This document shows positions 3,135 through 53,271 of a stretch of 64,000 bases of DNA, piece by piece (within the stretch, counting starts at the first letter, position 1; each line of letters begins with the position of its first letter). Position numbers and translations under genes: made by a program. The stretch is from Bacillota bacterium (GTDB lineage Bacteria; Bacillota; Clostridia; Peptostreptococcales; Anaerovoracaceae). Location: assembly GCA_022764365.1 (NCBI GenBank), contig JALERA010000045.1:12515-76514 (forward strand). The letters are read 5' to 3'. Under the pieces are notes generated by a model that was not told the origin of the DNA, searched no databases, and saw only the letters and a list, made by a program, of their open reading frames with translations.

Positions 3135-4695
3135 AGACTGCTTGCAGTTGGATTCTTTTAGAAAATGTATCGTAGTGGCCGGTGAAAAGCATATGGATAA
3201 CCGCATCAAAGCCGTGTCCGTACTGGATGCGGCAACTCCGGCGGAGGCACTTGCCTGCAACGGAAACAGCGGCACCATGATTCTCACGACTTTTGCGGGA
3301 ATGAAGAAAGATACCAAAGCACAGTGCGAAACAATCAAAGAACTTGCAAAAGCAGGTGTTCCGGCGATTGTGTTTTTCCAGCGAGAGAAAAGCGCGCGTC
3401 CGGTTGACAAAGAGGTAACCGCGGCTGCCGACACGGCGGGAATTCCGCTGCTTCTCATGGTAGACGGCGAGGGCATGGACTATTCCAAGATCATCGCCGA
3501 GGTCATGGAGCAGGTGCTGTACGGCAACAATTTCAAGAACAGTCTCATAAACAACACGATTTTCCATCTGCTGAACTTCGAGAAGCATTCGAGCTTCCAG
3601 CAGGCTTTGCACGAGGCTGCCGTGAACAACGACTTCCAGGCTGTTCTGCTCAGCGAGGAATTCAACCCGGTTTTCACGGTTGAAACGCGCCATCAGGCAA
3701 CCATAAACGAAGTAATCCGGCGCGGCAGAGAAGTTGCGCTGAATCTGGGGCACATCTACAGCCTCATCGAGATAAACGGCGTGCTCACTTACTGGGGGCT
3801 TCTTTATCTCAATAACGAAAAATATTATTTGTTCATCGTGGACAACGACGACAATTATTCGGCGGGCGAAATCACCAAGCTTGCCGAAATCATAGAGCTT
3901 GCAATGGGCATGTGGAAGTTCACGCCGGAGCGGGATGCGAAGGCGGAGCTTGTCAAGGCACTCATGAGAGGAAACAAGAGCCTTGCGTATTCCCTTCGCG
4001 AGGAGGCGGGAATCCGCGCATCGGATATTTTGTCCGTGGTCTATGCAAGAGGCATTGAAACCGGCATGGCGGACGAGATTATCGACGAATATATGGAAAA
4101 AGGTCTTCTGAACATCATCAAGATAACCGAGGACAATGAAAGCTACGCGGTTCTGCTGCGCGGCGAAAAACTCGGAGAAGATGAGGATATTTCAGAGATG
4201 GCGGTGTGCGTTTCCTTCTTTGACAGACTCAAGGAAAACAAGACGGTTCGTATTTTCCATGTAACCGGTGTTGACCGCATCGAAGGAGCCGGGGACGGCT
4301 TCCGGCTGATCGGCGAGACCTGGGCGTTTGTCGAAAATATTTTCCCGTATAAGAGAGTCTTCTCGAAATACGAACTTGCGCTTGTAAGCAACTGCATCAA
4401 CATCCAGGTTCAGGGCGGACACCTCAAGAAAAACTACATGGATCTTTTGGACCCGTTCCGCAAGGAAGGGGACAACAAGTCCAGACAGCTTCTCGAAACG
4501 CTTGAGACCTTTGCTTTGGATGCGGGCATGAACAGCGGCAAGACGGCGGAGTTTATGGGCATACATACGAACACCGTTCAGTACAGGCTCAAAAAAATCA
4601 ACGACCTTCTGGGTGCGGAAATCACGGGAAATCGTGTCATCCCGGGTCTTACGATTGCGCTTGCCCTGCAGAGAATGGAAAACGCAAAGAAATAG
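3118..4695 (+). CDS. PucR/CdaR-family transcriptional regulator
   Basis: The 525-aa product has a C-terminal PucR-type HTH (SGKTAEFMGIHTNTVQYRLKKINDLLG) and a PucR-like N-terminal domain. Confidence 0.8.
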   Translation: MKVTVKDCLQLDSFRKCIVVAGEKHMDNRIKAVSVLDAATPAEALACNGNSGTMILTTFAGMKKDTKAQCETIKELAKAGVPAIVFFQREKSARPVDKEVTAAADTAGIPLLLMVDGEGMDYSKIIAEVMEQVLYGNNFKNSLINNTIFHLLNFEKHSSFQQALHEAAVNNDFQAVLLSEEFNPVFTVETRHQATINEVIRRGREVALNLGHIYSLIEINGVLTYWGLLYLNNEKYYLFIVDNDDNYSAGEITKLAEIIELAMGMWKFTPERDAKAELVKALMRGNKSLAYSLREEAGIRASDILSVVYARGIETGMADEIIDEYMEKGLLNIIKITEDNESYAVLLRGEKLGEDEDISEMAVCVSFFDRLKENKTVRIFHVTGVDRIEGAGDGFRLIGETWAFVENIFPYKRVFSKYELALVSNCINIQVQGGHLKKNYMDLLDPFRKEGDNKSRQLLETLETFALDAGMNSGKTAEFMGIHTNTVQYRLKKINDLLGAEITGNRVIPGLTIALALQRMENAKK

Positions 4696-4732
4696 GAAAC
4701 AGGAAAATAAAGTAATATATTGGAAAAAATAT

Positions 4733-5707
4733 ATGAATGCAAAAGTTTTAAAAATAGGAAATGTTGAACTTGACAGTCCCTTCCTGCTTGCGCCCATGGC
4801 CGGAATTACCGATGGGCCGTTTCGCCGCATCTGCCGCGAAATGGGGGCAGGGCTTGTGTACTCCGAAATGGTGAGTGCAAAGGGGCTTTGGTTTAAAGAC
4901 AAAAATACAGGCAGGCTCCTCGAAATCTTAGATGGCGAGGAGCCTGTGGCGTACCAGCTTTTTGGGCATGAACCGGAAATCATGGCATTTGCGGCAGAGA
5001 CTCTGGCCGGCCGAGGCAATGTAATCTTTGACATTAATATGGGCTGCCCGGTGCCGAAGGTCGTAAAAAACGGGGAAGGCTCGGCCTTGATGAAGGATCC
5101 GCAGCTTGTTTTTGATCTCGTGGAAGCTGCGGTAAAAGGTGCCGGCAAGCCGGTGACGGTCAAAATCCGTGCAGGCTGGGACGAGGCTTCCGTCAATGCT
5201 GTGGAAATCGCACGCGCCGCCGCGGCGGGCGGAGCCGCCGCGGTCGCGGTCCACGCCCGGACGCGCGAACAGTTTTACAGCGGCCGGGCGGACCGCGCCG
5301 TCATCGCCGCCGTTAAGCATGCAGTATCAATCCCGGTCATCGGAAACGGCGACGTGACGGACGGCGCGTCCGGAATGAGCATGATGGATGAAACCGGATG
5401 CGATTTTGTCATGGTCGGACGCGGCGCACTCGGAAATCCGTGGATTTTCAGAGAACTGAATGCCGCATGGAAGGGTACTGAGCCGCCTGCTGCCCCGAGC
5501 ATGGAAGACAAGAAACAGATGATGATAAGGCATTTTCGCGACGTCCTTGCGCTGAAAGGCGAGTATGCGGCGGTTCGCGAGATGCGAAAGCATGTCGGCT
5601 GGTATCTGAAGGGCCTGCCGGGCTCGGCAGCTTTTCGCGGCATGGTAAATCAGATTACAAAGGCGCAGGAACTCGAAAGCGCCATAAGAAATCTTGGATG
5701 CAGATAG
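4733..5707 (+). CDS. dusB: tRNA-dihydrouridine synthase
   Basis: The product starts MNAKVLKIGNVELDSPFLLAPMAGITDGPFR and shows Dus FMN-binding motifs (NMGCPVPKV, VTVKIR, HARTR). ATG 4733 is preferred over the 4613 ORF start, which overlaps the pucR-family gene. Confidence 0.9.
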   Translation: MNAKVLKIGNVELDSPFLLAPMAGITDGPFRRICREMGAGLVYSEMVSAKGLWFKDKNTGRLLEILDGEEPVAYQLFGHEPEIMAFAAETLAGRGNVIFDINMGCPVPKVVKNGEGSALMKDPQLVFDLVEAAVKGAGKPVTVKIRAGWDEASVNAVEIARAAAAGGAAAVAVHARTREQFYSGRADRAVIAAVKHAVSIPVIGNGDVTDGASGMSMMDETGCDFVMVGRGALGNPWIFRELNAAWKGTEPPAAPSMEDKKQMMIRHFRDVLALKGEYAAVREMRKHVGWYLKGLPGSAAFRGMVNQITKAQELESAIRNLGCR

Positions 5708-5737
5708 CTTAAATAGCCAAGTTTCAAGGGAAAACAG

Positions 5738-6304
5738 ATGAAAGAGTTATTTGAGATTTTTATTGCTTCCGCCAAGGTGGGAGCCTTGACGTTCGGCGGC
5801 GGATATGCGATGCTGCCGATTTTACAGAGAGAGATAGTCGAAAACAAAGGGTGGAATTCCGAAGCGGAAATCCTGGATTATTATGCGCTGGCGCAGTGCC
5901 TTCCGGGGATTCTGATGGTGAACACCCTTGCTTTTGTCGGAAAAAACAGAAAAGGCAATATCGGAGCGGTCTTTGCTGCACTTGGCGCGGCCGCTCCTTC
6001 CTTTCTTATAATCACCATTATTGCGACGGTGCTCACGGCATTTGCAGATGTTCCCGCGGTCAAAAATGCTTTTGCGGGAATCAGGGTCTGCGTGTGCGTG
6101 CTGATTTTTAATGCCATAACCAAACTTTGGAAAAGCGCGATTGCGGACATTAAATGTCTTCTGTTGTTCCTGGCGGTTCTGACTGCGTCGCTCTTGCTGG
6201 ATGTGACTCCGATTCTGTTCGTTGTCGTTTCGGCGCTCCTTGGAATTGCAATTACAATGCTTTCGGCGCGCAAAACATCCGGTGCACATGCGGATGACGC
6301 GTAG
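5738..6304 (+). CDS. chrA: Chromate-transporter (CHR) family protein, short half 1
   Basis: The motif GALTFGGGYAMLPILQREIV is typical of the CHR family. The gene is paired with a second short CHR gene. Confidence 0.8.
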   Translation: MKELFEIFIASAKVGALTFGGGYAMLPILQREIVENKGWNSEAEILDYYALAQCLPGILMVNTLAFVGKNRKGNIGAVFAALGAAAPSFLIITIIATVLTAFADVPAVKNAFAGIRVCVCVLIFNAITKLWKSAIADIKCLLLFLAVLTASLLLDVTPILFVVVSALLGIAITMLSARKTSGAHADDA

Positions 6305-6321
6305 GAAGGGGGTGCATCGAA

Positions 6322-6906
6322 ATGATACAACTCCGGCTGTTCTATGAATTTCTCAAGATCGGACTCTTTGCGGTCGGCGGCGGCATGGCGGCACTTCCGT
6401 TCATACAGGACATGGCAGAGCGCACGGGCTGGTGCACGAGTGCACAGATTGCGGATATGCTTGCGGTTTCCGAATCCACGCCCGGGCCGATCGGAATCAA
6501 CATGGCAACCTATGTGGGCTTTGAAGTCGGCGGAATTACGGGTGCCCTGGCCGCAACGCTGGGTGTTGTGATTCCCGGGGTCATTCTCGTCATCCTTGTG
6601 ATGGCGATAATCGGCAAGTTCCGCGGAAACAAGCTCGTCGAAGGTGCCTTTTACGGACTGCGGCCTGCATCGACGGCGTTGATTGCCGCTGCTGGGGTTT
6701 TGGTGTGTGAGATTACGTTTTTAAACCTTGATTTGTATGCGGAGACAGAGAATATCGCAAACCTTTTGAACTTCAAAGCTTTTGTGCTTGCGGCTGTTTT
6801 GCTCGTCCTTACGCGCGCCGTAAAACCTACGAAAAATCTGCACCCTGTCATTTTTATTGCTTTTTCCGCGGTGGTGGGAATTGCGTTTTCTTTTGCGGGT
6901 GTGTAG
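6322..6906 (+). CDS. chrA: Chromate-transporter (CHR) family protein, short half 2
   Basis: The motif GLFAVGGGMAALPFIQDM is present, the product is polytopic, and the gene sits next to half 1. Confidence 0.8.
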   Translation: MIQLRLFYEFLKIGLFAVGGGMAALPFIQDMAERTGWCTSAQIADMLAVSESTPGPIGINMATYVGFEVGGITGALAATLGVVIPGVILVILVMAIIGKFRGNKLVEGAFYGLRPASTALIAAAGVLVCEITFLNLDLYAETENIANLLNFKAFVLAAVLLVLTRAVKPTKNLHPVIFIAFSAVVGIAFSFAGV

Positions 6907-6992
6907 TTGACACGGCATTGAATTGCCACTATAATAAACATATCTATACGAAATTTTAGCAATAAGAATTAACAATTTTGGAGGAAATCATT

Positions 6993-8354
6993 ATGCAACA
7001 GAAATCAACTGCAAAACTGGTTGTATGCATTGTGGGCACGGTGGTGTTTGCCTTGCTTGGAATCAGAAACTTTGTATCTTTGGTACAGGACCTCGGATAC
7101 ATTATTGAAGGGTATGGCGGAGTCTCGTTCCTTCTCAGAGATTTAGTCGGCGTGCTCGGATATTTGGTACTGGCAGCCGGAACTTTGGTGCTCGGTCTCG
7201 ACAAGGTGGACAAAAAGCTTGGAATCCTTGCTTTTGCCGGTGCGTGTGCCGCAGCACTTTCTCAGTTTATATCGCTCATCATGGGATTTTCATACGGAAA
7301 CTATCTTGTATGGAATGCCTATGTATATGAGGAAAATTTTAACTTCCTCTGCTTCCTGCCGAGCTTCTTCGAATTCCTTGCATATGCAGCTTTTGCGCTT
7401 GCTCTGGCATTCGGCCTTTTGAAAGCGTTTTCCGCAAAGAAATACCTGTTTAAGAACCTTTGGTTTGTACCGGCAGCAGTCCTTCTGTTTGCAAGAATTA
7501 TCTTTGTAATCTGCTATGCAATCTACGATTATGATTGGTACGGTGCATACGGGATGTCGTTTTTCGGCGTAGTCTGGACTGTATTTGAACTTGTGGGAAT
7601 GTGTGCAGGCGGAATTCTTGTGCTCAACCCGGAACTTCTTCCGGCATCCGCGCCGCAGGCATATGCACAGCAGGCATATGCACAGCCTGACGGAAGTTAT
7701 GCGGCACCGGGCGGATATGCACAGCCGGGTGCGCAGACTTACGGCACTCAGGCCGAGGCACAGGCACGTCAGTATTATGCACAGCCGCAGAAACCGGACG
7801 GCTATTGCGACATGCTTAAGCATGTATTGCTCTTGCTTTTCACTTTCGGTATCTGGCAGTTTATTTGGATTTACAGAACCACGGAGTTCTTAAACCGTAC
7901 ACCGAATGAACCTCCGAGAAGCGGAGTTTCTCAGCTTCTGCTTTGCATGTTCGTTCCGTTTTACATCATTTACTGGGTTTACGCAAGCTGTAAGAGAATC
8001 GACAAGCTGGCATATTACAACGGCATTCAGGGTGAAATTACGGTTATGTGCGTACTGTTTGAAATCTTTATAGCAATTCTTGCTCCGATTTTCATGCAGG
8101 ATAAACTCAACAATATTGTTACATTCAGGAATATTCCGCCGGCCGGCGTGGATCCTGCATATCAGCAGGCACAGCAGGCGGCATGGCAGCAGGCTCAGGC
8201 ACAAGCGCAGACCTATCAGGCTCAGCCGCAGCCGCAGGCTGCACCGCAGCAGCCACCTGTTTATCAGCAGACTGCAGAACCTGTAGTAACGCCTGTGCAG
8301 CAGACCGCAGAACCTGTAGTAACGCCGATTGAACCGGCAGAAGACGAAAATTAA
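6993..8354 (+). CDS. Polytopic membrane protein with a DUF4234-like module and Q/A/P-rich low-complexity segments
   Basis: ATG 6993 follows the RBS GGAGGA. There are several TM helices, and the motif LLLLFTFGIWQFIWIYRTTEFLN resembles DUF4234. Q/A/Y/P-rich linkers are also present. Confidence 0.6.
   Translation: MQQKSTAKLVVCIVGTVVFALLGIRNFVSLVQDLGYIIEGYGGVSFLLRDLVGVLGYLVLAAGTLVLGLDKVDKKLGILAFAGACAAALSQFISLIMGFSYGNYLVWNAYVYEENFNFLCFLPSFFEFLAYAAFALALAFGLLKAFSAKKYLFKNLWFVPAAVLLFARIIFVICYAIYDYDWYGAYGMSFFGVVWTVFELVGMCAGGILVLNPELLPASAPQAYAQQAYAQPDGSYAAPGGYAQPGAQTYGTQAEAQARQYYAQPQKPDGYCDMLKHVLLLLFTFGIWQFIWIYRTTEFLNRTPNEPPRSGVSQLLLCMFVPFYIIYWVYASCKRIDKLAYYNGIQGEITVMCVLFEIFIAILAPIFMQDKLNNIVTFRNIPPAGVDPAYQQAQQAAWQQAQAQAQTYQAQPQPQAAPQQPPVYQQTAEPVVTPVQQTAEPVVTPIEPAEDEN
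8265..8330 (+). repeat. 33-bp tandem duplication (in frame) at the 3' end of the membrane-protein gene
   Basis: cagcagactgcagaacctgtagtaacgcctgtg is followed by cagcagaccgcagaacctgtagtaacgccgatt, encoding QQTAEPVVTPV / QQTAEPVVTPI. Confidence 0.9.
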
Positions 8355-9316: not shown

Positions 9317-10096
9317 TTACAACTTTTCGACCTCTTCAGTAGAAAGCCCGGTTATTTCTGCGATGTCAGCGGTCGGGATTTTTTTCGCCTTCATGCTTTT
9401 CGCAATTTCACGCTGCTTCTGTGCAGCGCCCTCATCGTATCCATAGTGCCAACGAATCTTCAATTCTTCTTCTATCGTCATAATCTGTGTCACCTCCGCA
9501 TCGTGGTTGACTTCCTCGACCTTTTCGTGGATGCGTTTGACGAAGTCGTCATTTTCATCGACCTCCTCACACTTCACATAGGTAAAGAAAGTTTCCAGTT
9601 CTTTCGGAATCTTGCCCTTCGGACAATTGATTGCTAAGATTATTGTATAGGTTTCATCGTTTAATTGCAACTGTAAATTTTTATCAGTCATTTGAAATTG
9701 ATAGACTGCTTCGCCCATTTCAAACGGGTCTTTCATGAAGATAAAAATGACATAGCTTGGCTTGAGGTCTTTGTAATCTCTGCCTTTCTTCAGGAAGTGC
9801 GTGTCCATGCTCGTGTGATAGTAACGGGAACGCTTTGGAAGCTCCGGCTCCTTTTCCACCTGCATTTCAATGTCATATACTTCTTTTTCGCCCTCGAACA
9901 AAACATTCAGCCGCACGGACTTCGAGAGAACCCCTGTAACAATGGTTTTCTCAGGTGTGATTTTAATGTCATTTGGGAAAGTGATGGATTTGACCTTCTT
10001 TCCCGGAAAGAGACGCTGGACGAATTCCGCACAAATCTCCTCGTCCTGCATGACGAGTGCAAACATCAGCTTGTTGCTGAACTTGTATCTAGCCAT
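9317..10096 (-). CDS. Rpn-family recombination-promoting nuclease / putative transposase (PD-(D/E)xK)
   Basis: The core YDIEMQVEKEPELPKRSRYYHTSMDTHFLKKGRDYKDLKPSYVIFI is typical of Rpn/YhgA-like proteins. ATG 10096 follows the RBS GAGAGGA. Confidence 0.75.
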   Translation of the reverse strand: MARYKFSNKLMFALVMQDEEICAEFVQRLFPGKKVKSITFPNDIKITPEKTIVTGVLSKSVRLNVLFEGEKEVYDIEMQVEKEPELPKRSRYYHTSMDTHFLKKGRDYKDLKPSYVIFIFMKDPFEMGEAVYQFQMTDKNLQLQLNDETYTIILAINCPKGKIPKELETFFTYVKCEEVDENDDFVKRIHEKVEEVNHDAEVTQIMTIEEELKIRWHYGYDEGAAQKQREIAKSMKAKKIPTADIAEITGLSTEEVEKL

Positions 10097-10431
10097 ATTT
10101 TTTCCTCTCATCTTCCGAGTCTGCGCGCATGCTCTGATTCATACAGATTCTGTAAGATAATAATAGCATAATATGGAAACAAATATAAGTCATATACTGG
10201 GAATTGCCCCGAGGAAAATTCCGACAAAATTCGACAAGCGAAGGCGGAAAGCAGATAAAGAGCAAAAAACAGAACGATGGATCCCTCCGACATTCTCATA
10301 AGTTTTAGATTTTTCGAAGAGATAAGAAGTGCTTGTGAAAAAGCAGAAGAAAGCGTAAAAAAAGAGGAAGTATGCCGTGCATAGGAGATCTGCAGTGCCG
10401 GCTTTGTGCAAGGAGGAAAAGACAAACGAGA

Positions 10432-10746
10432 TTATGTAAGCTTATCGACCTGCATTTCGATGGTCAGAAGCACACCGGAATCGGTTTTCGCCTTGATGTC
10501 CATAATGCTGTCTTTATCCAGTATCCACTCGCCCAAATCAATCGGGTTTGTGATTTCAATGTGACGAATCGGGTCGTCCTTTCGCTCAAGGATAATATTA
10601 AGCAGACCGATGAGCGCCGCGCGCGATTCTTCGGTGTCGCTTCCGTAGATGCGGTGAAAGACATAGTCATTATAAAGCGGCATGCGCGTGCGGTCATTCA
10701 GACGCGTTTTGCGGCTCGCCGCCGCGAAGCTAGCAAAAACACCCAA
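10432..10746 (-). pseudogene. Truncated PDDEXK_2/Rpn-type nuclease gene (N-terminal third only)
   Basis: The translation MPLYNDYVFHRIYGSDTEESRAALIGLLNIIL...ITNP...MDIKAKTDSGVLLTIEMQ then stops. Full-length family members are about 300 aa, and the downstream frames show no continuation. Confidence 0.6.
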
Positions 10747-10763
10747 ACCGCCATATATGACCT

Positions 10764-10823
10764 CTGTTTCGTGTAGGGACTACATGTTTCACGGGAATTT
10801 TCATTGTTTCACGGAGATTTCCG
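10764..10823. repeat. Three direct repeats at exact 20-bp spacing (TGTTTCGTGTA / TGTTTCACGGG / TGTTTCACGGA)
   Basis: The repeats start at 10765, 10785 and 10805, immediately upstream of the truncated nuclease gene. The reverse complement of the first unit recurs at 10969 and 49005. Confidence 0.8.
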
Positions 10824-11027
10824 GTCAGGAGGGAGAGGGGGACGATGGGGTACCAAAAAAGAGTACAAATTATACCATTGAAATTTCAACGGTTTGACGG
10901 ATTGTTTTTTTTGAGGAATGTCCGTCCGGACAAAAGATAAGCATATCCCGGTGCATATGGGCGGTCGATACACGAAACACCCCCTAAAAAAACCACTTTG
11001 GATGTTTTTGCTAATCCCGGCCGCCCT

Positions 11028-22564: not shown

Positions 22565-22600
22565 CGTGAGTTTTCCCAAACGGGAAATATAATGACATAA

Positions 22601-22715
22601 TCTGTTTCAGGGCGAGGTGAAATTCCTCACCGGCGGTATAGTCCGCGAACGCCGAGAGGCGCCGAGCAGGTGAAATTCCTGCACCGACGGTATAGTCCGG
22701 ATGAGAGAAACAAAG
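22601..22715 (+). promoter_or_regulatory. FMN riboswitch (RFN element)
   Basis: The sequence cagggcgaggtgaaattcctcaccggcggtatagtccgcgaacg...gcaggtgaaattcctgcaccgacggtatagtccggatgagagaaac matches the conserved RFN core (GGTGAAATTCC...CCGGCGGTA...CCGACGGTATAGTCCGGATG). It lies upstream of an ECF S-component gene. Confidence 0.85.
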
Positions 22716-22893
22716 GATTGCGCGATGCCTGCGTAATAGAATGACGGAGGCTTGGCGCGGAATTCGTATGTTGCTTTTTTGAGCCTTGATTCCCATCAAG
22801 GCTCTACTTGTGTAACCTGACAGATTTCCAACTACATCTTAGGGCGCCCGGACTTCAAAACGGGCAGATACAGAAAGAGAGGAAACTGTAGAA

Positions 22894-23490
22894 ATGACTA
22901 ATTTAAACAATCAGAAGGCAAAGTCGGACAGACTTGTCAAAATGGCGATGATGGCTGCGGTCGCATGTGTAATCGGGCTTGTACGGTTCCCGCTGATACC
23001 GGCGGTATCATTCTTAACTTACGACCTTGCAGACATTCCGATTATCATCACGACCTTTGCGTTCGGGCCTGCGGCAGGAATGCTTGCACTTACCGTCGTG
23101 AGTGCAATCCAGGCGTTTCTCCTTGGCGGAGACAGCGTTTACGGCTTCCTGATGCATATGATTGCATCGGGTGCATTTCTTATCACAGCCGGATGCATTT
23201 ACAGAAAACACAAGACGAAGAAAGTCGCAATTATTTCGATGGCGGCTGCAACTCTTGTAATGACGGTTGTCATGGGCTTCGCAAACTATTTTGTAACACC
23301 GTTCTACTACGGCGGAGAAGCAATGAGAGAGGTCGTTGTAAGCCTGATGCCGCTGATTCTTTTGTTCAACGTAATCAAGGGCATCTTAAATTCGCTTATC
23401 ACTTTTGTGGTATATAAGAGAATTTCGGGATTCCTTCACAGAGAGGGGCTTCACAAAGCACATGAAAATAAAGAGAATTATACCAATTAA
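22894..23490 (+). CDS. ribU: ECF-transporter S component, probable riboflavin transporter
   Basis: The product is a 6-TM small integral membrane protein of the ECF S-component type and is preceded by the FMN riboswitch. Confidence 0.75.
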   Translation: MTNLNNQKAKSDRLVKMAMMAAVACVIGLVRFPLIPAVSFLTYDLADIPIIITTFAFGPAAGMLALTVVSAIQAFLLGGDSVYGFLMHMIASGAFLITAGCIYRKHKTKKVAIISMAAATLVMTVVMGFANYFVTPFYYGGEAMREVVVSLMPLILLFNVIKGILNSLITFVVYKRISGFLHREGLHKAHENKENYTN

Positions 23491-45548: not shown

Positions 45549-46955
45549 TTATTTAGCCTTCAGTCTGTCAACTTCAGCAAAGTGCTCTTTGGTGAGTTTG
45601 AATACCACCGGTGAAAGTGCAAACAGTGCAATGAAGTTTGGAATTGCCATAAGACCGTTGAATGTATCTGCAATATCCCATACCGCATCGATCGGGCTTA
45701 CGCAGCCGACTACGATGATGATGCAGAAGAAAATCTGATAAGGCTTAACTGCTTTCATACCGAAGAGGTACTGGATGCAGCGTGTTCCGTACAGGGACCA
45801 GCCGAGGATTGTGGAATATGCGAACATCATTAAAGCAAGTGCAACGAAAACAGCGGAGAGCTTGTCGCCCCAAATTGTTCCGAATGCGGAAGTGATGAGC
45901 TCGCTGCCCGGCTTTTCGCCGAATGTGATGTCAACGCCGCTGATGATGATTGTAAGCGCTGTCAGTGAACAGATTACGATCGTATCGATGAATACTTCAA
46001 AAATACCGAAGACACCCTGCTGAACCGGTCCTTCGCAGTTTGCCGCAGCGTGTGCGATAGGCGCAGAACCAAGACCTGCTTCGTTGGAGAATGCGGATCT
46101 TCTCAGACCCCAAACGATTGCGTTCTTAAGCAGAATACCGCTGCCTGCGCCGACAACCGCCTGTGGGTTGAATGCAGCAACGAAAATCTTGCGGAATGCT
46201 TCTCCAACCATGTCAATATTGCCGAAGATGACAACGAGGGTGAAAACGATGTAAACAATACTCATAATCGGAACGAGTCTTTCGGTTACGGAACCGATTC
46301 TCTTGATGCCACCGAACAGAACGCCTGCAGTCAGGAGAGCCAGAGCGATACCGATTACCCAGTCAACCGCAGCCACATCTGCAAAGTTAGGAGCAAATGC
46401 TGCAACCGCACCCTTGATGGAGTCGTTGATGGAGTTTGCCTGAGACATGTTGCCGATACCAAACGATGCCAGAACTGCGAATAAGCAGAACAGAATCGCA
46501 AGCCAGGACCATTTCTGTCCGAGACCGTTCTTGATATAGTACATCGGTCCGCCGACCCAGTCACCCTTTGCGTCCGTTTCACGATAACGAATGGAAAGTG
46601 TAACTTCGGCATATTTGATAACCATGCCCAGGAGCGCTGCCAGCCAGAGCCAGAAAATCGCACCGTATCCACCGAGTGCAATCGCCTGGGAAGTTCCGAC
46701 GATATTACCGGTACCTACCGTTCCGGCAAGTGCGGTACATACAGCCTGAAGCGGTGTAACCTCACCTTCACCTGCATCCGATTTCTTGAAAATTTTTCCG
46801 AATGTGTTTTTCATGGCATATCCGAATCTACGGAATTGAACGCCGCCCGAACCAATTGTATAATACAATCCTCCTACGAATACGCAAGGAAGCAGGATGT
46901 AAATCCATGCGACGGTATTCAGTGTGCCTGCTACAAAATCATATAAAGCCTGCAT
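45549..46955 (-). CDS. Alanine/glycine:cation symporter (AGCS) family transporter
   Basis: The motifs GEVTPLQAVCTALAGTVGTGNIVG and SNEAGLGSAPIAHAAA are present. ATG 46955 follows the RBS AGAGAGG. Confidence 0.9.
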   Translation of the reverse strand: MQALYDFVAGTLNTVAWIYILLPCVFVGGLYYTIGSGGVQFRRFGYAMKNTFGKIFKKSDAGEGEVTPLQAVCTALAGTVGTGNIVGTSQAIALGGYGAIFWLWLAALLGMVIKYAEVTLSIRYRETDAKGDWVGGPMYYIKNGLGQKWSWLAILFCLFAVLASFGIGNMSQANSINDSIKGAVAAFAPNFADVAAVDWVIGIALALLTAGVLFGGIKRIGSVTERLVPIMSIVYIVFTLVVIFGNIDMVGEAFRKIFVAAFNPQAVVGAGSGILLKNAIVWGLRRSAFSNEAGLGSAPIAHAAANCEGPVQQGVFGIFEVFIDTIVICSLTALTIIISGVDITFGEKPGSELITSAFGTIWGDKLSAVFVALALMMFAYSTILGWSLYGTRCIQYLFGMKAVKPYQIFFCIIIVVGCVSPIDAVWDIADTFNGLMAIPNFIALFALSPVVFKLTKEHFAEVDRLKAK

Positions 46956-47005
46956 TTTTGTGTCCTCTCTTTCTTCTTTTAGCTTTTTAATGTCAATGTT
47001 AGAAA

Positions 47006-47041
47006 TTAAAAAGAGACAAGCTTTCCGGAAAGCCTGCCTCT
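47006..47041 (-). terminator. Intrinsic terminator in the symporter leader (likely the riboswitch expression platform)
   Basis: On the minus strand, agaggcaggcttt-ccgg-aaagcttgtctct is followed by ttttaatt. Confidence 0.6.
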
Positions 47042-47124
47042 TGGTTCTTATGCAAATATTCGTCAATCATAAACAAGTAACAATGTAAAGCTGAAATACT
47101 CCCCAATTAGGGAGGAATCATTTC

Positions 47125-47312
47125 TTTCTGTCCTTTTGCCTGAGAGATTGGCGTATTCTTCGCCTTGCACCTTCGGCCCCCGCTTAAGCGGGCGTCTCCA
47201 GAACGCTATCCCTTTACAGTCCTCACCGCGCGAGGCATACCCGGTCGGGCAGGCCGTGCGGAACCTGAGAGTTTTACTCCTTCGGTAGGTTCAACCTTTT
47301 CCTGCAAAGTTC
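47125..47312 (-). promoter_or_regulatory. Tandem glycine riboswitch
   Basis: Read on the minus strand, aptamer 1 is gcaggaaaagg..cctaccgaaggagtaaaactctcagg..cctgc. Aptamer 2 is ttctggagacgcc..ggggccgaaggtgcaagg..aatctctcaggcaaaaggacagaa. Both carry the conserved ACCGAAGG.GCAA/CTCTCAGG core and lie upstream of an AGCS transporter. Confidence 0.8.
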
Positions 47313-47445: not shown

Positions 47446-48768
47446 TTAGGAGCGAATTTTTTTGTCATAGAGCACCAGTGCCAGCACAAGAGTACAGGTT
47501 TCCGAAGCGGCAGCAGCGGTCCAAACGCCGGTCTCGCCAAAGAAGAAAGAGAATATAAGGACGAAAACCGATGTAAAAATCAGCCCGCGCCCGACGGATA
47601 TGCTCATAGCCGACTTCGGCAGCTCTATAGACGTGAAATATCCCATCAGCGTAATCACTGCACCGAGAGGAAGAAACGCAGGGGAGTAGAGCCTGAATGC
47701 GTGAACGCTCTGCTCGAAAAGCTGCGGACTTGCCTCACTGTCAATGTATACGCCTACGATAGGGTCCGGATAAATCAGCCCGATTGCGAATGCGAGGAGC
47801 GAACATACGCCCGCGCAGCAAAGCGCAATCTTAAAAATGTAACGGCAGAAAGATCTTTTTTCCTTGCCGTAGTAATAGCTGATGAGCGGCTGCGTGCCTT
47901 GGTTTATGCCCATCATGGTCATAAGCACCAGCTGCGCAAAGTAGGAAATAATCGTATAAATCACAACTCCGTCGTTTCCCGAAATGCTCAGAAGCACGCG
48001 GTTGAAGACGAAAATGCAGATTCCCACGGAAAGCTCCGTCATGCAGTCGGCAATGCCAAATTTCGTACGGCAGAATGCCTCTTTGAGCTCGCCGCCACTG
48101 ATTCTGACAAAGGAAAATTCCGATTTTGTCGAAAGGAAATGTTTCACATAAATGCTGAAGGACATCAGCTGCGACAGCCCCGTCGCGATTGCTGCGCCCG
48201 CAATTCCCCACCGGAACACGAGTACAAACAGTGCGTCCAGCACGATATTGCAGCATGCCGCCGCAACGCATGTTTTGATGGCTGTCTGCGGAAACCCGTC
48301 CGCCTTGACCAAAACTTCCAAATTGTAGGATGTCATATAAAAAGGAATAAATGCTGTGATTATTCCAAGATACTGCTTCACATAGTCAATCGTCTCATCC
48401 GTTGCACCCAGAAAAAGCGCAACCTTATCAAGAAAAAGCAGGATAACTGCGGCGACTGCAAGCCCGACCAACGCAACGGCAATCACGCTGCCGGTAAAAA
48501 CTTTGTTCGCGCCGCTGCGCTCGCCCCGGCCTTTGCATACGGAAGCGCGCGTGCTTGCTCCGACTGCAAACAGGATTCCCAGTGCGAATGCCGCATTGAC
48601 AACCGGCATCGCAAGATTTACTGCCGCCAGTGCATCCTCGCCCACGCCGCGCGCTACGAAGATACCGTCTACCATCGTATAGATGGTATAGACCCACATT
48701 GCGGCAACGGAAGGCATAACATAATGGAAGAATTTCGATTTGATGTAAATTTTGTTTGAATTTGTCAT
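47446..48768 (-). CDS. MATE-family efflux transporter
   Basis: There are 12 predicted TM helices, and the N-terminus FFHYVMPSVAAMWVYTIYTMVDGIFVARGVGEDALAAVNLAMP is MATE-typical. ATG 48768 follows the RBS GAGGTGA; the ORF-track extension to 48933 runs into GC-rich noncoding DNA. Confidence 0.9.
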   Translation of the reverse strand: MTNSNKIYIKSKFFHYVMPSVAAMWVYTIYTMVDGIFVARGVGEDALAAVNLAMPVVNAAFALGILFAVGASTRASVCKGRGERSGANKVFTGSVIAVALVGLAVAAVILLFLDKVALFLGATDETIDYVKQYLGIITAFIPFYMTSYNLEVLVKADGFPQTAIKTCVAAACCNIVLDALFVLVFRWGIAGAAIATGLSQLMSFSIYVKHFLSTKSEFSFVRISGGELKEAFCRTKFGIADCMTELSVGICIFVFNRVLLSISGNDGVVIYTIISYFAQLVLMTMMGINQGTQPLISYYYGKEKRSFCRYIFKIALCCAGVCSLLAFAIGLIYPDPIVGVYIDSEASPQLFEQSVHAFRLYSPAFLPLGAVITLMGYFTSIELPKSAMSISVGRGLIFTSVFVLIFSFFFGETGVWTAAAASETCTLVLALVLYDKKIRS

Positions 48769-48787
48769 TGTTATCACCTCTGTAAAC

Positions 48788-48818
48788 AGCATAAACCCTG
48801 GTATCATACCAAGGTCAA
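48788..48818 (-). promoter_or_regulatory. MerR-type promoter (19-bp spacer containing a palindrome) for the MATE gene
   Basis: On the minus strand, TTGACC is followed by the 19-nt spacer ttggtatgataccagggtt and then TATGCT. The imperfect palindrome CCTTGGTAT-g-ATACCAGGG spans the -35 element and the spacer. Confidence 0.6.
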
Positions 48819-48883
48819 GAGTGATTTTGAAAAATTTTTTTGCCACCGGTCTCCCCGGTGCCGCCGCCCGGTGCGGCCGGGGG

Positions 48884-48988
48884 CGCCGGCGTTTGGGAAA
48901 CCTTGGCGTTTGGGACCTCGGGGACGCCGGCATTCCGGGAAACCTCGGCGTTTGGAGCCTCGGTGACGCCTGCGTCTGGGAAACCTCT
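48884..48988. repeat. GC-rich tandem repeat, 42-bp unit (two alternating 21-mers), about 2.5 copies
   Basis: ggcgtttgggacctcggggacgccggcattccgggaaacctc is followed by ggcgtttggagcctcggtgacgcctgcgtctgggaaacctc, with a leading partial unit. Confidence 0.85.
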
Positions 48989-49770
48989 GAGGAGAGATAG
49001 CGTTTACACGAAACATGCCCTTATAGAGGGGTGCTTCGTGTCTTTGAGGCCATAAATCGCCCCGAAGCGTCCCGGGCACGCATAGCGGCATAAGCGCCCG
49101 CTGAGGACCCCCTCTCAAAACGGTGAAATTTCAACAACCCAATAAATTCCATTTTGAATGCCGCCGGAGAACCAACCCTGCCGTGCGCAAAATTCACCTA
49201 AAATGGGCAAAAGACACGAAAAGGGGGTCAATTTTCGGCAGTTGGTGGGAAATGCCTAATTCTTACAGAAATGTAAAATGTCCGGTGTGCTGAGTCGAGC
49301 ATGCTGCATGCCTTGGGCGCGCACCCAAGCGCACGCCTCCGAAAACTAACCCAAACGCACGGCAGCAGTCCTCGATGTCTCGTCCCTGTCCCGGATGTGC
49401 ACCCTAAGCCCCGCACGCTTTCGCCCCAGGATTTCAGAACCTTCGGCGTTTGGAAGCATGGCGTGCCGTCCGGCCCCCTGCGCGCCTCCGCCCGAGGGGC
49501 GGGGCGCCTGGAATCCCTTGAACTCGCGAACCTCCGCCCTTGAGCCGCCGAGCCCCGACGACCCAGGGGCTCGCCGCGTACTTAATTCCCGAAGATACTT
49601 TTTAAAAATGAAAATGTATGATATGCTTATAGCAGAGACGAACGCGTTCCGGCGATGCGGAAACGAAAGTGTGCTGGCTGACGATGGTACCGGCACCCCC
49701 AGAGTGTGCGATTGGACGCACCTCGACGGTGACCGGTGCGCCCCGCGCGGGCATGCGAAAGGAGGAGATG

Positions 49771-50577
49771 ATGAAGGAATATTACAAGATAGGCGAAATT
49801 TCAAAACTTTACAATATCGGTACGGATTCGCTCCGCTACTACGAAGAAATCGGCATACTGCGGCCGCGGCGCGACGAAAACGGCTACCGCATGTACAGCG
49901 TCGGCGACATCCGAACCCTGAACGTTCTGCGCGAACTCCGCAGCATCGGCTTCCCGATGAAAGACATCAAAGCACACCTCAAGGACTTCGACGTGCAGCA
50001 AACGCTAGACATGTTCGCCGAGGCCATCGAAAGAATCGACCGGCGGCAGGAAGAACTCGAATTGCTCAAGAAAAATGTTTCCGAACGCATCGACGAGATC
50101 AATTACTATTTACGCGAAAAAAACACACACGAGAGCATTTCCGTGCAGTCGCTGCCCGAACGCCACATCCTCAAACTCAGCGAAAAAGCGCTACGTGAGA
50201 CCGACATCGATTTCGTCCTCAAGAAACTGCAGTCAGAGTACGAGGACCAGCTTTACATCGTAGGAAACGGTGAAATCGGAGCGCTGATTGACAGCGACTG
50301 CCTGCTCGAGGGTGAATACGGGCGCTTCGAAGCAGCCTTCTACATCGTAGCGCCCGACGAAGAGTTCGACGCCGTGCTTCCCGCCGCAGACTATCTTTGC
50401 ATGACGGTCAAAGGTTCTTATGCACAAATGCGCGAGGAGTGGAGCAAGATTTTGGACTATGCGCGACGGGAAGGGTTCAGCGTCTGCGGCAGCGGCGTCG
50501 AACTCTACCTTATCGACGACCACGACACAAACAAGGAGAGCGAATTCATCACCGAACTGCAGATTGCAGTTCGGTGA
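49771..50577 (+). CDS. MerR-family transcriptional regulator with a GyrI-like effector-binding domain (BmrR type)
   Basis: MKEYYKIGEISKLYNIGTDSLRYYEEIGILRPRRDENGYRMYS is the MerR HTH. The C-terminal 150 aa are GyrI-like. The RBS is AAGGAGG, and 49768 is an alternative start. Confidence 0.85.
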   Translation: MKEYYKIGEISKLYNIGTDSLRYYEEIGILRPRRDENGYRMYSVGDIRTLNVLRELRSIGFPMKDIKAHLKDFDVQQTLDMFAEAIERIDRRQEELELLKKNVSERIDEINYYLREKNTHESISVQSLPERHILKLSEKALRETDIDFVLKKLQSEYEDQLYIVGNGEIGALIDSDCLLEGEYGRFEAAFYIVAPDEEFDAVLPAADYLCMTVKGSYAQMREEWSKILDYARREGFSVCGSGVELYLIDDHDTNKESEFITELQIAVR

Positions 50578-50640
50578 TGAAGAGGCGGCAGCAGGCACGG
50601 CCGCGTCCCGGACTAAACACCCTGCGGCCGCCTGTGCCGC

Positions 50641-50718
50641 CAGGCGGCTCGGCGGCATGCGCAGCATCTCGACACTGCAGGCGGCTCGGCGGCATGCGCA
50701 GCATCTCGACACTGCAGG
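50641..50718. repeat. Perfect 37-bp tandem duplication
   Basis: caggcggctcggcggcatgcgcagcatctcgacactg occurs twice (50641-50677 and 50678-50714), followed by the first 4 nt of a third unit. Confidence 0.95.
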
Positions 50719-50780
50719 AACTTCGCAGGGGCGGGGGCAGAGATGCCAGACCTTTCCGGGCGGCAGTCAGGGATGCGGCA

Positions 50781-50921
50781 CCTTCCTGGAGGGCGAATTC
50801 TTCTTCATCTTGGGCGGAGGCGTTGCGCCTTCCTGGAAGGCGAATTCCTCTTCATCTCGGGCGGGAGCGTTGCATCTTCTTGGAGGTCGAATTCTTTTTC
50901 ATTTCGGGCGGGAGTGAAATG
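50781..50921. repeat. 47-bp tandem repeat, 3 progressively diverged copies
   Basis: The units start at 50781, 50828 and 50875 (ccttcctggagggcgaattcttcttcatcttgggcggaggcgttgcg and variants). The unit length is not a multiple of 3. Confidence 0.9.
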
Positions 50922-51300
50922 TCAAAAAATGGATAATCATGCATAAAGTAATATCTTTTTAGCCAAAGCGCCTCAAAAATAGAAACCGGCAGCCTGCAGA
51001 AACTCCAAAAACAGCAAAAAAGCCTCAGAACAGGCTGCTGTCGCAGACCCGCCCGGCAGGTGCCGCCCGGCAGGCCGTCGAGCCATATAAAAATTTCGAC
51101 GTTATAAGCTGTTCGCATCCGAGAAAACGAAAAAAAGGATGTGCATGCGGCAAATGCGAACTCTTGGTTCAGCCGGGGACGGAAGCTCGATTTTCTATCT
51201 TTTCGGTCCGATGCCCCAAAAGATAGAAAAATCGACCATTTTATGCATGCCCGGCGCCCACACCCGCCACCTGGCTGCCCCGGCGCACGCCCCACGCCTA
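50915..51300. repeat. Noncoding module, copy 1 (A box 50915-50994, B box 51194-51300)
   Basis: The A box shares the exact blocks ggataatcatgcataaagtaatatcttttt and aaaaatagaaaccggcagcc with copy 2. The B box shares the hairpin tctatctttt-N14-aaaagataga plus attttatgca and ccggcgcacgc. Confidence 0.85.
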
Positions 51301-51305
51301 GGGGG

Positions 51306-52136
51306 CTACATCTGCGGGAGCAGTATACCGGCAATTATGCGGCCGACCTCCTCAGAATCAAAGCCGCCGTCCGGGCCGTCGCATGTTACAATTAAGTTTT
51401 TAGGCTGATAGATGCCGTTCAAATAATACAGCTGCATTTTTTCCCGGTCACGCAAGAAGTACACATCATCGCCGAACATACCTTTATGCTCCCAATACAG
51501 AATTTTCCCGTTCGCAAGATAGATCGTAAAATCCGGATAAACTGTCATGAGCCTGCCGTGGCGATCATGCAAAACCAAGGCTTTTTCGTACACGAATTCA
51601 ATCCCCGCAGAAAAAAAGCTTTCGGCAAGCATCAACTCACCCTTCGAGCGTACGAGAAGACCGAACGAGGTTTTGTGAATGAGATTTTCACGCATGTATG
51701 GATTCTCGGACTGCCGAATCCAAGGCTTGACACCCTTCGGAGTATGGCTGCCTTTTTTGCGAATCCGCCCTTCGTAAGGCATGCGCTCATCGAAATGAAA
51801 TTGATAAGCCTTGGGCAGCGACGCATTTACCGCTGCAAAATCTGCGGGACGATACGCCGCCAAAAATTTTTCCTGCAGTACGATGTTCGACTTCAGACGA
51901 TTCTCCGTTTCCGCCACAAAACGCGCCACCTTCATATCGTTAACAATGTTTAAATCTTCCTTTTTTACATACCTAAGCGCAGCGTCGTTTTTGTACTTGC
52001 GCGCATAGAAAAGACGATTGCCTTTTTTCTGGCAAACAAGACGCCCGTCAGGCTTGGAAACATTTAGCGCTTTAATCTTTGCAAGCATTTGTTTCTCAAA
52101 ATCCAAATTCGCGCTTATACTATTCAAAAAGCTCAT
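51306..52136 (-). CDS. Orphan PD-(D/E)xK nuclease-fold protein (TnsA endonuclease N-terminal-like core)
   Basis: The C-terminal half SKGELMLAESFFSAGIEFVYEKAL...VYPDFTIYLANGKILYWEHKG gives the E...PD...ExK pattern. ATG 52136 follows the RBS AGGGAGG. The N-terminal 150 aa are unrecognised. Confidence 0.6.
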   Translation of the reverse strand: MSFLNSISANLDFEKQMLAKIKALNVSKPDGRLVCQKKGNRLFYARKYKNDAALRYVKKEDLNIVNDMKVARFVAETENRLKSNIVLQEKFLAAYRPADFAAVNASLPKAYQFHFDERMPYEGRIRKKGSHTPKGVKPWIRQSENPYMRENLIHKTSFGLLVRSKGELMLAESFFSAGIEFVYEKALVLHDRHGRLMTVYPDFTIYLANGKILYWEHKGMFGDDVYFLRDREKMQLYYLNGIYQPKNLIVTCDGPDGGFDSEEVGRIIAGILLPQM

Positions 52137-52162
52137 GCAGCATACCTCCCTTTGTACTACAA

Positions 52163-52191
52163 ATAATACCATAAAAGGATTTAAATGTAAA
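52163..52191 (-). promoter_or_regulatory. Putative extended -10 promoter of the PD-(D/E)xK gene
   Basis: On the minus strand, TTTACA is followed by a 17-nt spacer ending in TGg, then TATTAT. Confidence 0.5.
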
Positions 52192-52202
52192 TACCCTCCA
52201 GC

Positions 52203-52560
52203 TGAAAAATGTAAAAAAAAGGATAATCATGCATAAAGTAATATCTTTTTGGACAAAGGGCCTCAAAAATAGAAACCGGCAGCCCCGCAATGGGCTTCCG
52301 GCATATAAAAAAAGCATAATCCCGCGCCGCAGGAATATGCGTAAAAACCACTCAAAAACCAAAACGTTGAAATTCCAACGGTTTACAATTGTACAATTTC
52401 TTTTGTAATTTGACCCAAATTCCTTTTGCGAGTCAAAACCGCAAGGGGGGCGTCTATCTTTTCGGCTCAAACGGTAAAAAGATAGAAAAAACCGACATTT
52501 TATGCACGGGCAGCCGACACACGCGCGGCCCAAACAGCACACCGGCGCACGCTAGCGGCC
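52203..52560. repeat. Noncoding module, copy 2 (A box 52203-52284, B box 52453-52560)
   Basis: This is a direct-orientation duplicate of 50915-51300 with internal indels. The B end overlaps the stop codon and last codons of the TRIC-channel gene. Confidence 0.85.
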
Positions 52561-53184
52561 GCCGCCGCGGCTGCCGGGTTTTGGCAGGCTCCACCTGTAA
52601 TGCGAAGCGAGCAGGCGGATCAGAACGATGAGAACCGCGCCCGAAAGCATCGCGACATAGCCGTTGGTGTAAGGCATGAGGATGCAAAACAGCAGGGCGC
52701 CTGCGATAGAGGCGGTCGCGTAGATGTGGCGTACGAATATATATGGCATGTCGCCTGCCATCACATCGCGGAGAAGACCGCCGCCGACCCCTGTGATGAC
52801 ACCGACAAAGACGGCGAGAAATACGGTCGGATTCTCGGAAACCTCAAAGGCGCGCATAGCACCGGAAACGGTGAAAATACCAAGGCCGATTGAGTCGGCA
52901 AGCAGCATAACACGGCTGCTGCGTTCGAGAAGGTCGCGAACCTGTGGGATGAACACGATGAGACATGTGAGAAATGCCGTCAGTGCGTAAATCGGATTTT
53001 GAAACATTGCCGGCGGGAACGCACCGAGGATGATGTCTCGGATGATACCGCCGCCGACCGCCACGGTAAGCGCAAGTACGAATGCGCCGAAAATATCCAT
53101 GTTTTTTCTGATTCCTGTCATTGCGCCGGAAACCGCAAACGCGGCGGCTCCGATAAGCTCCAATACTAAAATGAAAATATCCAT
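52552..53184 (-). CDS. Trimeric intracellular cation channel (TRIC/UPF0126, YadS-like) family membrane protein
   Basis: The repeated glycine motif appears as AAAFAVSGAMTGIRKNMDIFG...VGGGIIRDIILG and FTVSGAMRAF...VGGGLLRDVMAG. ATG 53184 follows the RBS AAAGGTGG. Confidence 0.85.
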   Translation of the reverse strand: MDIFILVLELIGAAAFAVSGAMTGIRKNMDIFGAFVLALTVAVGGGIIRDIILGAFPPAMFQNPIYALTAFLTCLIVFIPQVRDLLERSSRVMLLADSIGLGIFTVSGAMRAFEVSENPTVFLAVFVGVITGVGGGLLRDVMAGDMPYIFVRHIYATASIAGALLFCILMPYTNGYVAMLSGAVLIVLIRLLASHYRWSLPKPGSRGGGR

Positions 53185-53235: not shown

Positions 53236-53269
53236 ACGCAAAGTCAACGCAAAGTCAACGCAAAAGTCA
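53236..53269. repeat. Three tandem 11/12-bp direct repeats (ACGCAAAGTCA) abutting a -35 box
   Basis: acgcaaagtca acgcaaagtca acgcaaaagtca is followed 2 nt later by TTGAAA. Confidence 0.85.
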
Positions 53270-53271
53270 AA

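Follow-up and report, generated by a model that had tools for sequence, protein, structure and literature searches.

A TnsA-like nuclease gene between miniature inverted-repeat modules in a Bacillota genome: an apparent nuclease-plus-miniature-repeat selfish system

Two kinds of miniature mobile DNA come closest to the locus described here. The first is the REPIN/RAYT system, in which REP doublets are associated with a REP-associated tyrosine transposase (PMC3116915, PMC3337134, PMC5581495). The RAYT is a low-copy and mostly vertically inherited gene of nuclease type, which is under purifying selection and lies between copies of dispersed palindromic repeats, and there are several divergent paralogues per genome, each with its own repeat type. 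The second is the transposable element of the miniature inverted-repeat type (MITE), a short (<~500 bp) noncoding unit with terminal inverted repeats, whose subfamilies share their ends and differ in their interiors, and which is known from its presence or absence at orthologous sites, its dispersed copies, and its part in rearrangements. The locus in question lies at positions 48830-52560 of a 64-kb stretch of DNA from a Bacillota bacterium of the Anaerovoracaceae (the whole stretch is called the window), between a MATE gene and a TRIC-channel gene. It holds a gene for a TnsA-like PD-(D/E)xK nuclease between two copies of a noncoding module with inverted ends, and the whole has the look of a novel selfish system, made up of a nuclease and miniature repeats, by which chromosomes are also broken and rejoined.

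The locus shares the features listed above with both systems, being closest to REPIN/RAYT in logic and to the MITE in anatomy, but it is filed in neither because there is no HUH enzyme and no transposase-bearing parent insertion sequence (IS). The enzyme is of the PD-(D/E)xK type (TnsA-like), whereas that of REPIN/RAYT is an HUH/Y1 enzyme of IS200 type (IS200/IS605 TnpA-like). The units measure 220-390 bp and have terminal inverted repeats and variable interiors, in contrast to ~100-bp REP doublets with GTAG/CGTC heads; moreover, the observed copy number is low and GC-rich minisatellites stand at the ends. Unlike for MITEs, no DDE, serine, or tyrosine transposase with the same ends was found, the sole linked gene lies outside the repeats, between modules, and no target-site duplication was recognised at the modules. 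Integron attC sites are different again, since they measure 57-141 bp, are built on R''/L''...L'/R' cores, occur in direct orientation only, and have an integrase nearby, whereas the modules measure 221-376 bp, may stand inverted around the gene (as in L022, below), and have no integrase nearby.

The interval between the regulator gene merR and the TRIC gene is a composite which consists, in order, of a GC-rich tract, module A, a GC-rich tract, the nuclease gene, module B, and a GC-rich tract. Module A (50917-51249; 333 bp, 46% GC) and module B (52207-52507; 301 bp, 39% GC) make up family 1 and stand in direct orientation, one on each side of the nuclease gene (51306-52136, minus strand). The promoter of the nuclease gene (52163-52191, minus strand; TTTACA, a 17-nt spacer, and a TG-extended TATTAT, with 10 of 12 matches) sits just outside module B. 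The two modules share their ends: the L-ends of 78 nt (50917-50994 in A, 52207-52284 in B) are 94% identical and the R-ends of ~100 nt are 69% identical, while the interiors, at ~48%, are unrelated. The L-end and R-end are mutually inverted, each of them beginning with (A/G)TGCATAAA and continuing into a hairpin. For example, the terminal motif ATGCATAAAGT of module A at 50939-50949 has its inverse at 51238-51248, and the R hairpin of the same module, TCTATCTTTT-N14-AAAAGATAGA at 51194-51227, has a perfect 10-bp stem; in module B, the R hairpin is found at 52453-52486 and the terminal motif at 52497-52507. Module B (GTTGAAATTCCAAC plus T-run, 52365-52380) and, in relatives, module A have at their centre the palindrome GTTGAAATT(T/C)CAAC with a T-run after it, which looks like a terminator. 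Module A of the window carries a terminator-like hairpin at 51021-51036, in the direction of the nuclease gene.

From these comparisons, the modules appear to behave as miniature inverted-repeat elements with a variable interior. A first-pass annotation of the window had noted a duplicated module of about 350-390 bp; the duplication is real and flanks the nuclease gene, but the copies measure 333 and 301 bp and only their ends are alike. The same annotation held that the repeats were not IS ends and belonged to no described class, which is too strong, as the modules have terminal inverted repeats, are MITE-like, and have solo copies elsewhere. In L001 (L numbers denote the comparison loci and contigs from relatives), the two L-ends of the same genome are 95% identical to each other versus 89-91% between orthologous L-ends, and derived changes are shared within the genome. 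Gene conversion would account for this likeness, as would co-evolution with a single binding protein.

The nuclease, of 276 amino acids, is assigned to the PD-(D/E)xK fold by AlphaFold2 and Foldseek and by conserved catalytic residues. Its AlphaFold model (mean pLDDT, the predicted local distance difference test, of 85.7) shows a novel N-terminal helix/beta-hairpin domain and a C-terminal nuclease domain, and E167, D202 (in YPDF), and E216-H-K218 are invariant or nearly so among 26 homologues. The best match of the model among solved structures is TnsA of Tn7 (1t0f_A at a Foldseek probability of 0.99, 1f1z_A at 0.80), although this match is weak by E value (0.03) and template modelling (TM) score (~0.26). 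The motif order E...PD...ExK is likewise that of TnsA. Unlike in Tn7, the nuclease domain is C-terminal here, the Pfam model Tn7_Tnp_TnsA_N does not match even at E<10, and TnsB, TnsC, and TnsD partners and Tn7-type ends are absent. Neither the nuclease nor its family profile has a significant match in Pfam, NCBIfam, PHROGs, or the PDB sequences, and Y1_Tnp of Pfam is among the models that the nuclease does not match.

Among viral models, the structure resembles enzymes of the PD-(D/E)xK type: a homing endonuclease of a phage, endonuclease I, and proteins of the DUF559 and TnsA_N kinds. At the level of sequence, the nuclease domain (residues ~140-271) is homologous to the C-terminal domain of the candidate defence protein PDC-S68 in PADLOC (E 2e-28), where the match spans only profile positions ~1084-1218 of 1221; the match to PDC-S69 is weak. 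The same domain ends genes annotated as ‘AAA family ATPase’ on Bacillus cereus plasmids, and the identity to the C-terminal domains of PDC-S68 and of the plasmid proteins is 34-39%. However, the PDC proteins and plasmid fusions have ~1,200 amino acids with an ATPase region, whereas the present protein has 276, another N-terminal domain, and flanking repeats.

The nuclease gene is intact, with conserved catalytic residues, and is under purifying selection, with a ratio of nonsynonymous to synonymous substitution rates (dN/dS) of 0.09-0.16; it appears to be inherited mostly vertically. Between the window and L009, its dS is 0.207 against 0.073 for the adjacent merR (~3-fold). No transposase or recombinase was found within ~8 kb of the nuclease loci and no integrase near the modules; the neighbours are housekeeping genes, and tnsB and tnsC are not among them. 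The tilS-like open reading frame (ORF) at 105-1010 was tested as a second paralogue and rejected, so that the window has a single member of the family.

The association of nuclease and modules extends beyond the window. A search with the family profile retrieved 7,461 representatives at 50% identity (E<=1e-3), of which 1,194 remain at E<=1e-30, and none of the representatives carries a Pfam domain. Within a genome there are two or three paralogues, which share 35-49% identity. In a survey of the flanks of 21 nuclease-family loci, the gene lies between two lineage-specific module copies in four independent paralogue groups, represented by the window and L001, L016, L038, and L022, with double-flank scores of 68-221 versus a null 95th percentile of 18. 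The modules of L016 measure 270 bp, stand in direct orientation, and have perfect 25-nt terminal inverted repeats; those of L038 measure 150 bp and are likewise direct. In L022, two 100% identical copies of 221 nt stand inverted around the nuclease paralogue (3626-3846 and 4854-5074), an arrangement which would allow inversion of the gene segment. More generally, 15 of the 21 loci have in a flank an inverted-repeat pair, 100-260 nt apart, which scores above all 60 controls. The motif TGCATAA is found 17 times in the flanks versus ~3 expected, a six-fold excess that is confined to some lineages.

Other paralogues are accompanied by tandem hairpins. For example, five tandem 73-nt units (3645-3984 of L032) lie immediately upstream of a nuclease paralogue. 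Each has the form TCCACCGA-N31-TCGGTGGA, in which the stem is conserved and the loop varies, and the final 3' arm extends over the ribosome-binding site. In another metagenome-assembled genome (L034), a paralogue has the same stem sequence beside it, and three tandem hairpin units lie just upstream of the paralogue in L025. The first-pass annotation had called the nuclease gene an orphan, but it is not unrelated to the repeats: members of the family adjoin inverted-repeat or hairpin modules, or lie between them, in several lineages.

A second family of modules is found in the spacer between merR and the MATE gene. The family-2 module (48994-49280; 287 bp, 49% GC) has a hairpin arm of the ACACGAAAC...GTTTCGTGT type and a core palindrome GGTGAAATTTCAAC at 49122-49135. 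It is present in the window and L009 and absent at the orthologous site in L001-L008, so that the merR-MATE spacer appears to have taken it up. Its relatives are a second family-2-like module in the window (10740-11020, minus strand; core palindrome at 10877-10890) and, in Firmicutes bacterium CAG:238 (L017), the stretch immediately downstream of a nuclease paralogue with 39% identity. An earlier reading of ~49100-49290 as a third, more diverged relative of the duplicated module is not borne out: this is a different family, whose likeness to family 1 is limited to the core palindrome GTGAAATTTCAAC and the overall design. The palindrome GTTGAAATTTCAAC is found, with one mismatch each, in three modules of the window (3 matches versus 0.38 expected). 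A k-mer enriched in the flanks, TTGAAATT, was rejected as a marker, since it represents partly promoter -35 boxes and partly the palindrome GTTGAAATTTCAAC with a T-run (terminator-like) and is alone no proof of homology.

Near the second family-2-like module, the window also holds a PDDEXK_2 gene (9317-10111, minus strand), of the Rpn-type ‘PD-(D/E)XK nuclease family transposase’, and a truncated second PDDEXK_2 copy of 83 amino acids (10460-10700, minus strand). As this Rpn-like fragment adjoins the module directly downstream, a second member of the nuclease superfamily is also found beside a module.

Family-1 modules are dispersed in the chromosome. Metagenome contigs were scanned with the R-hairpin pattern, which is generic, so that ~100 of the 120 matches listed are chance AT-rich hairpins. 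Among the others, a solo module of A type directly follows tRNA-Ser(CGA) and its terminator in at least six contigs; beyond it lie a gene for sigma-70 and one for a serpin. The identity of these copies is 84-86% for the interior and 91-95% for the ends, and a tblastn search of the six contigs detected no nuclease. In at least four further contigs, a diverged solo module built on the same design stands between convergent genes, with ~190 nt of very GC-rich DNA on each side.

Two rearrangements between relatives break at module termini. In the first, contig L173 (MerR 94% identical) matches L001 at 98.6% over 1-2766, which includes MATE, merR, and the GC-rich tract, and matches the tRNA-Ser locus L145 at 98.1% over 2844-7693. 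The ~40 informative sites change type once, within the 17 nt AAAAAATGGATAATT just outside TGCATAAAG. Since L173 joins both loci, the solo and the nuclease-linked modules belong to one species. In the second, the window and L009, which continue into TRIC, lose homology with the L001 lineage, which continues into genes for an iPGM and an AddA-like helicase, 3-5 nt outside GTGCATAAAATG of module B. Short (~1.1 kb) contigs with homologues were considered as excision circles or tandem units and rejected; they have no circular overlap and are ordinary fragments that break near module ends.

The extent of the inserted DNA is best explained with compact relatives, whose MerR is 74-78% identical to that of the window. 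The gene order is MATE, 173 bp, merR, 96 bp, TRIC, and GNAT in L165; MATE, 125 bp, merR, 89 bp, and TRIC in L167-L172; and MATE, 109 bp, merR, 130 bp, and then another gene in L164. The same two spacers measure 1002 bp (MATE-merR) and 1974 bp (merR-TRIC) in the window. As the spacers of the relatives are compact (89-173 bp), everything else in those of the window was inserted, and the extra DNA arose by accretion and not by decay. The first-pass annotation had proposed to look for a directly adjacent merR-MATE pair in relatives, and they do have one, with 109-173 bp between the genes. By the criteria set there, the observation does not become ordinary through this result, which marks the extra DNA as inserted. 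The single GC-rich island which that annotation described resolves into inserts accreted in two short ancestral spacers.

The ancestral part is ordinary. The MerR/GyrI-like regulator gene (49771-50577, plus strand; Pfam E 2e-16 and 1e-6) has orthologues in relatives. The MATE promoter (48794-48831, minus strand) has a TTGACC/TATGCT-like pair with the dyad CCTTGGTATGATACCAGGG in its long spacer; this classical MerR-type operator is kept in compact relatives, including L164 and L165, and the promoter and operator are ancestral and lie outside the inserts. The inserts have shifted the merR promoter ~800 bp from the MATE promoter. They widen the distance between the divergent promoters under MerR control at a MATE gene for multidrug efflux, whose regulation may be altered.

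Among closer relatives, stages of this accretion can be seen. In the L001-L008 lineage (nuclease 91% identical), module A, the nuclease gene, and module B adjoin merR, and both 48930-49538 and the 37-nt and 47-nt arrays described below are missing. L009 (nuclease 96% identical) has 48925-49280 and lacks 49281-49539. The block of nuclease and modules is 86% identical to L001, and its neighbours are 92-93% identical. Small tandem repeats are also seen in other spacers of the clade: an 11-nt repeat (ACGCAAAGTCA x3.1) at 53236-53270, in the divergent TRIC/GNAT promoter region of the window, and a 12-nt x3 repeat (GGTCGCGAGAAT) at 3985-4020 of L165, in its otherwise ‘empty’ merR-TRIC spacer. Such intergenic repeats may be a general habit of the clade.

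Many of the GC-rich tracts consist of tandem repeats. Those of the merR-MATE spacer include a 13-nt x2 repeat (48854-48879) and a 42-nt x2.7 minisatellite (48878-48987), which abut one end of the family-2 module, and in relatives the unit number or arrangement of 48854-48987 differs. A tract of ~63% GC at 49281-49539 is found in the window only and contains the 42-nt unit once, in diverged form (49423-49453). On the outer side of the L-end of module A, the tract at 50578-50916 holds a 37-nt x2.1 minisatellite with 100% identical units (50641-50718) and a 47-nt x2.9 minisatellite (50778-50914), the 47-mer being present in 3 copies in the window, 2 in L009, and 0 in L001. The tract outside the R-end of module A (51250-51305) has 84% GC, and L009 has a 16-nt unit x4 there; that outside the R-end of module B (52508-52551), which reaches as far as the stop codon of TRIC, has 75% GC and is duplicated in L009. 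Tandem Repeats Finder recovered the 13-nt doublet and, at the places where they had first been noticed, the three minisatellites.

These flanking minisatellites are unstable loci of the variable-number tandem repeat (VNTR) type. For example, a 16-nt unit at the L-end of module A has 2 copies in L001, 6 in L173, and ~10 in L174, strains that are otherwise 98-99% identical. Likewise, the length of (GGGCAT)n varies among solo module copies, and L022 has 33-nt and 28-nt doublets at its module ends. Of 19 module termini that do not face a gene promoter, 14 have 62-88% GC in the adjoining 45-60 nt, and the modules behind the 19 have 38-52%. The tracts are not copies of one element, as they show no homology among themselves or with the rest of the window. 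Such GC-rich, repeat-prone ends may reflect repeated breakage and repair, or hairpin slippage. Target preference is another possible source, and bearing on it, the merR-MATE spacer of L001 already has a short GC-rich tract without a module.

The base composition follows the same mosaic. The 64-kb window as a whole has 48.5% GC and its 23 other spacers have a mean of 41%, with every 80-nt maximum <=0.68. The noncoding stretches 48830-49770 and 50578-51305 have 59.2% and 57.7% GC with 80-nt maxima of 0.78-0.79, whereas noncoding 52137-52551 is AT-rich (42.2%), merR has 52.7%, and the nuclease gene 46.2%. The compositional shift first seen by eye therefore persists under calculation in the two former stretches, but it is patchy, with high GC confined to the tracts between modules and the modules themselves at 39-49%. 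Elsewhere in the window, an in-frame 12-nt/36-nt GC-rich repeat (SQGEPQG-like) at 682-762, within the tilS-like ORF, gives a coding GC peak, and another GC peak at ~5000-5500 lies inside a dihydrouridine-synthase-like gene.

The DNA outside the two genes is noncoding, repeat-rich, and compositionally unusual, as the GC, period-3, and repeat analyses all support. Its Arg/Pro/Gly-rich six-frame ORFs have a period-3 power (P3/mean) of 0.3-1.9 versus 8-20 in neighbouring genes, and no Pfam match was found among them, which leaves merR and the nuclease gene as the only two genes inside, as the first-pass annotation had proposed. It was also right that this is not CRISPR, since the repeats are irregular, the region has no regular repeat-spacer array, and there is no Rfam match: a search of 48500-53000 gave none at gathering thresholds and two chance matches only at E<10. 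In the whole window, the only Rfam matches are two riboswitches outside 48830-52560. An FMN riboswitch (22599-22716, plus strand, 114 bits) lies upstream of the ORF at 22894-23490, and a glycine riboswitch aptamer (47118-47211, minus strand; 61 bits, E 3e-10) lies upstream of a Na+/alanine symporter gene (45549-47066).

How nuclease and modules may work together can be set out as follows. The TnsA-like PD-(D/E)xK nuclease would recognise the conserved module termini and nick or cut there, and host repair or recombination of the breaks would spread or homogenise the modules. The joining of distant modules at such breaks would yield rearrangements, and their repair could yield the unstable tandem duplications at module ends. 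The gene itself would persist with a copy of its substrate on either side, in the way that RAYT genes lie between REPINs. Whether the locus is a MITE-like or REPIN/RAYT-like system of this kind, with the nuclease acting on the modules, is about evenly balanced. More tentatively, and with a probability clearly below even, it may represent a new selfish or domesticated class, in which a stand-alone TnsA-like nuclease, in place of a DDE, HUH, or serine/tyrosine enzyme, maintains and spreads its own modules by cutting their termini, hot spots of chromosomal rearrangement and hypervariable GC-rich minisatellites are by-products, and each lineage co-evolves with its own module type. The literature on TnsA-like nucleases with inverted repeats, and on PDC-S68 and PDC-S69, yielded no description of such a system.

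Several aspects weigh against a nuclease that acts on the modules. The link between the two is one of association only, double flanking is found in only 4 of ~16 paralogue groups, and several loci have no obvious module. The controls for the inverted-repeat pairs are mostly coding DNA. The copy number of modules looks low, with at least three loci per lineage among the matches listed. At neither the solo copies nor the inserted family-2 module was a target-site duplication recognised, the flanks there being hypervariable GC-rich repeats. A PD-(D/E)xK nuclease alone cannot carry out strand transfer, so that any spread must rely on host recombination. L173 is a single Logan contig from SRR29673548 and might conceivably be an assembly chimera, although the ~17 nt shared at the junction fall short of typical k-mers. 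Finally, the homology to PDC-S68 leaves room for a role in defence.

Such a role is at the centre of the strongest alternative, in which the nuclease gene is a conventional one of the host or of anti-phage defence and the modules are independent MITE-like repeats or terminator cassettes, moved by another enzyme and gathering beside the gene only through a preference for gene 3' ends, terminators, or GC-rich spacers. The matches to PDC-S68 and PDC-S69 and the plasmid ATPase genes that end in the same domain agree with it, as do the terminator-like hairpins in the modules, the solo copies after a tRNA terminator or between convergent genes, and the many paralogue loci that lack double flanking. 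It does not readily account for the recurrence of two-copy, lineage-specific flanking in four independent paralogue groups, for the 15 of 21 loci with a module-like inverted repeat in a flank, or for the lack of any transposase or recombinase within ~8 kb; the PDC entries, moreover, are only candidates and are matched by the nuclease domain alone. We regard this alternative as unlikely, though it deserves to be taken seriously.

A homing cassette would explain some of the same facts. Here, a free-standing endonuclease would cut empty intergenic alleles and be copied in by recombinational repair, with the modules and GC-rich tracts as homology arms. The best viral alignment of the nuclease is indeed a phage homing endonuclease (root-mean-square deviation 3.4 A over 119 columns, 24% identity), the fold being similar to that of the Bacillus phage Bobb enzyme. 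The gene is a discrete intergenic insert between conserved genes, related lineages have empty sites, and the threefold higher dS of the nuclease relative to merR is compatible with lateral exchange. However, the paralogues within a genome are only 35-49% identical and occupy different, stable, syntenic sites; some modules stand alone, with no copy of the gene; empty alleles showed no recognisable target site; and the dispersed modules have no counterpart among the phage PD-(D/E)xK homing endonucleases. A homing cassette is thus improbable.

Lower still in probability, and best called an outside chance, is the view that the modules are genes for structured noncoding RNAs (guides, antitoxins, or cis-regulators) which work with the nuclease. 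Single-sequence folds are somewhat stabler than shuffles (z = -2.0 and -3.5 for the two strands), and the tandem hairpin units upstream of paralogues (5 x 73 nt in L032, 3 units in L025) are reminiscent of type III toxin-antitoxin arrays. In contrast, when nine copies from four loci are aligned and folded, just four invariant palindromes persist, with only 2 of 36 pairs covarying, a consensus energy of -11.6 kcal/mol, and an unfavourable covariation term. With so few covarying pairs and no Rfam match, the conserved ends are better read as DNA sites than as RNA structure. Likewise, the interiors of A and B do not resemble each other, the modules are found in both orientations to the gene (inverted in L022), and solo copies lie far from any nuclease gene. 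That the region is decayed coding sequence or an assembly artefact is hardly credible, in spite of its long stop-poor ORFs on both strands, as it has neither period-3 signal nor Pfam match, relatives lack the segments or carry the same noncoding modules, and independent assemblies from many samples have the same architecture.

Should the nuclease indeed act on the modules, recognising and presumably cutting their termini, it would constitute a third enzymatic route to bacterial miniature mobile DNA, beside the DDE enzymes of MITEs and the HUH RAYTs of REPINs. It would explain the fragmentation of metagenome assemblies, the breaks of synteny between close relatives, and the origin of VNTRs used in strain typing, and the GC-rich, tandem-repeat-prone module ends could serve to study break-induced repeat expansion in bacteria. 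For the gut Clostridia, it would give a function to a very large and so far unannotated protein family.

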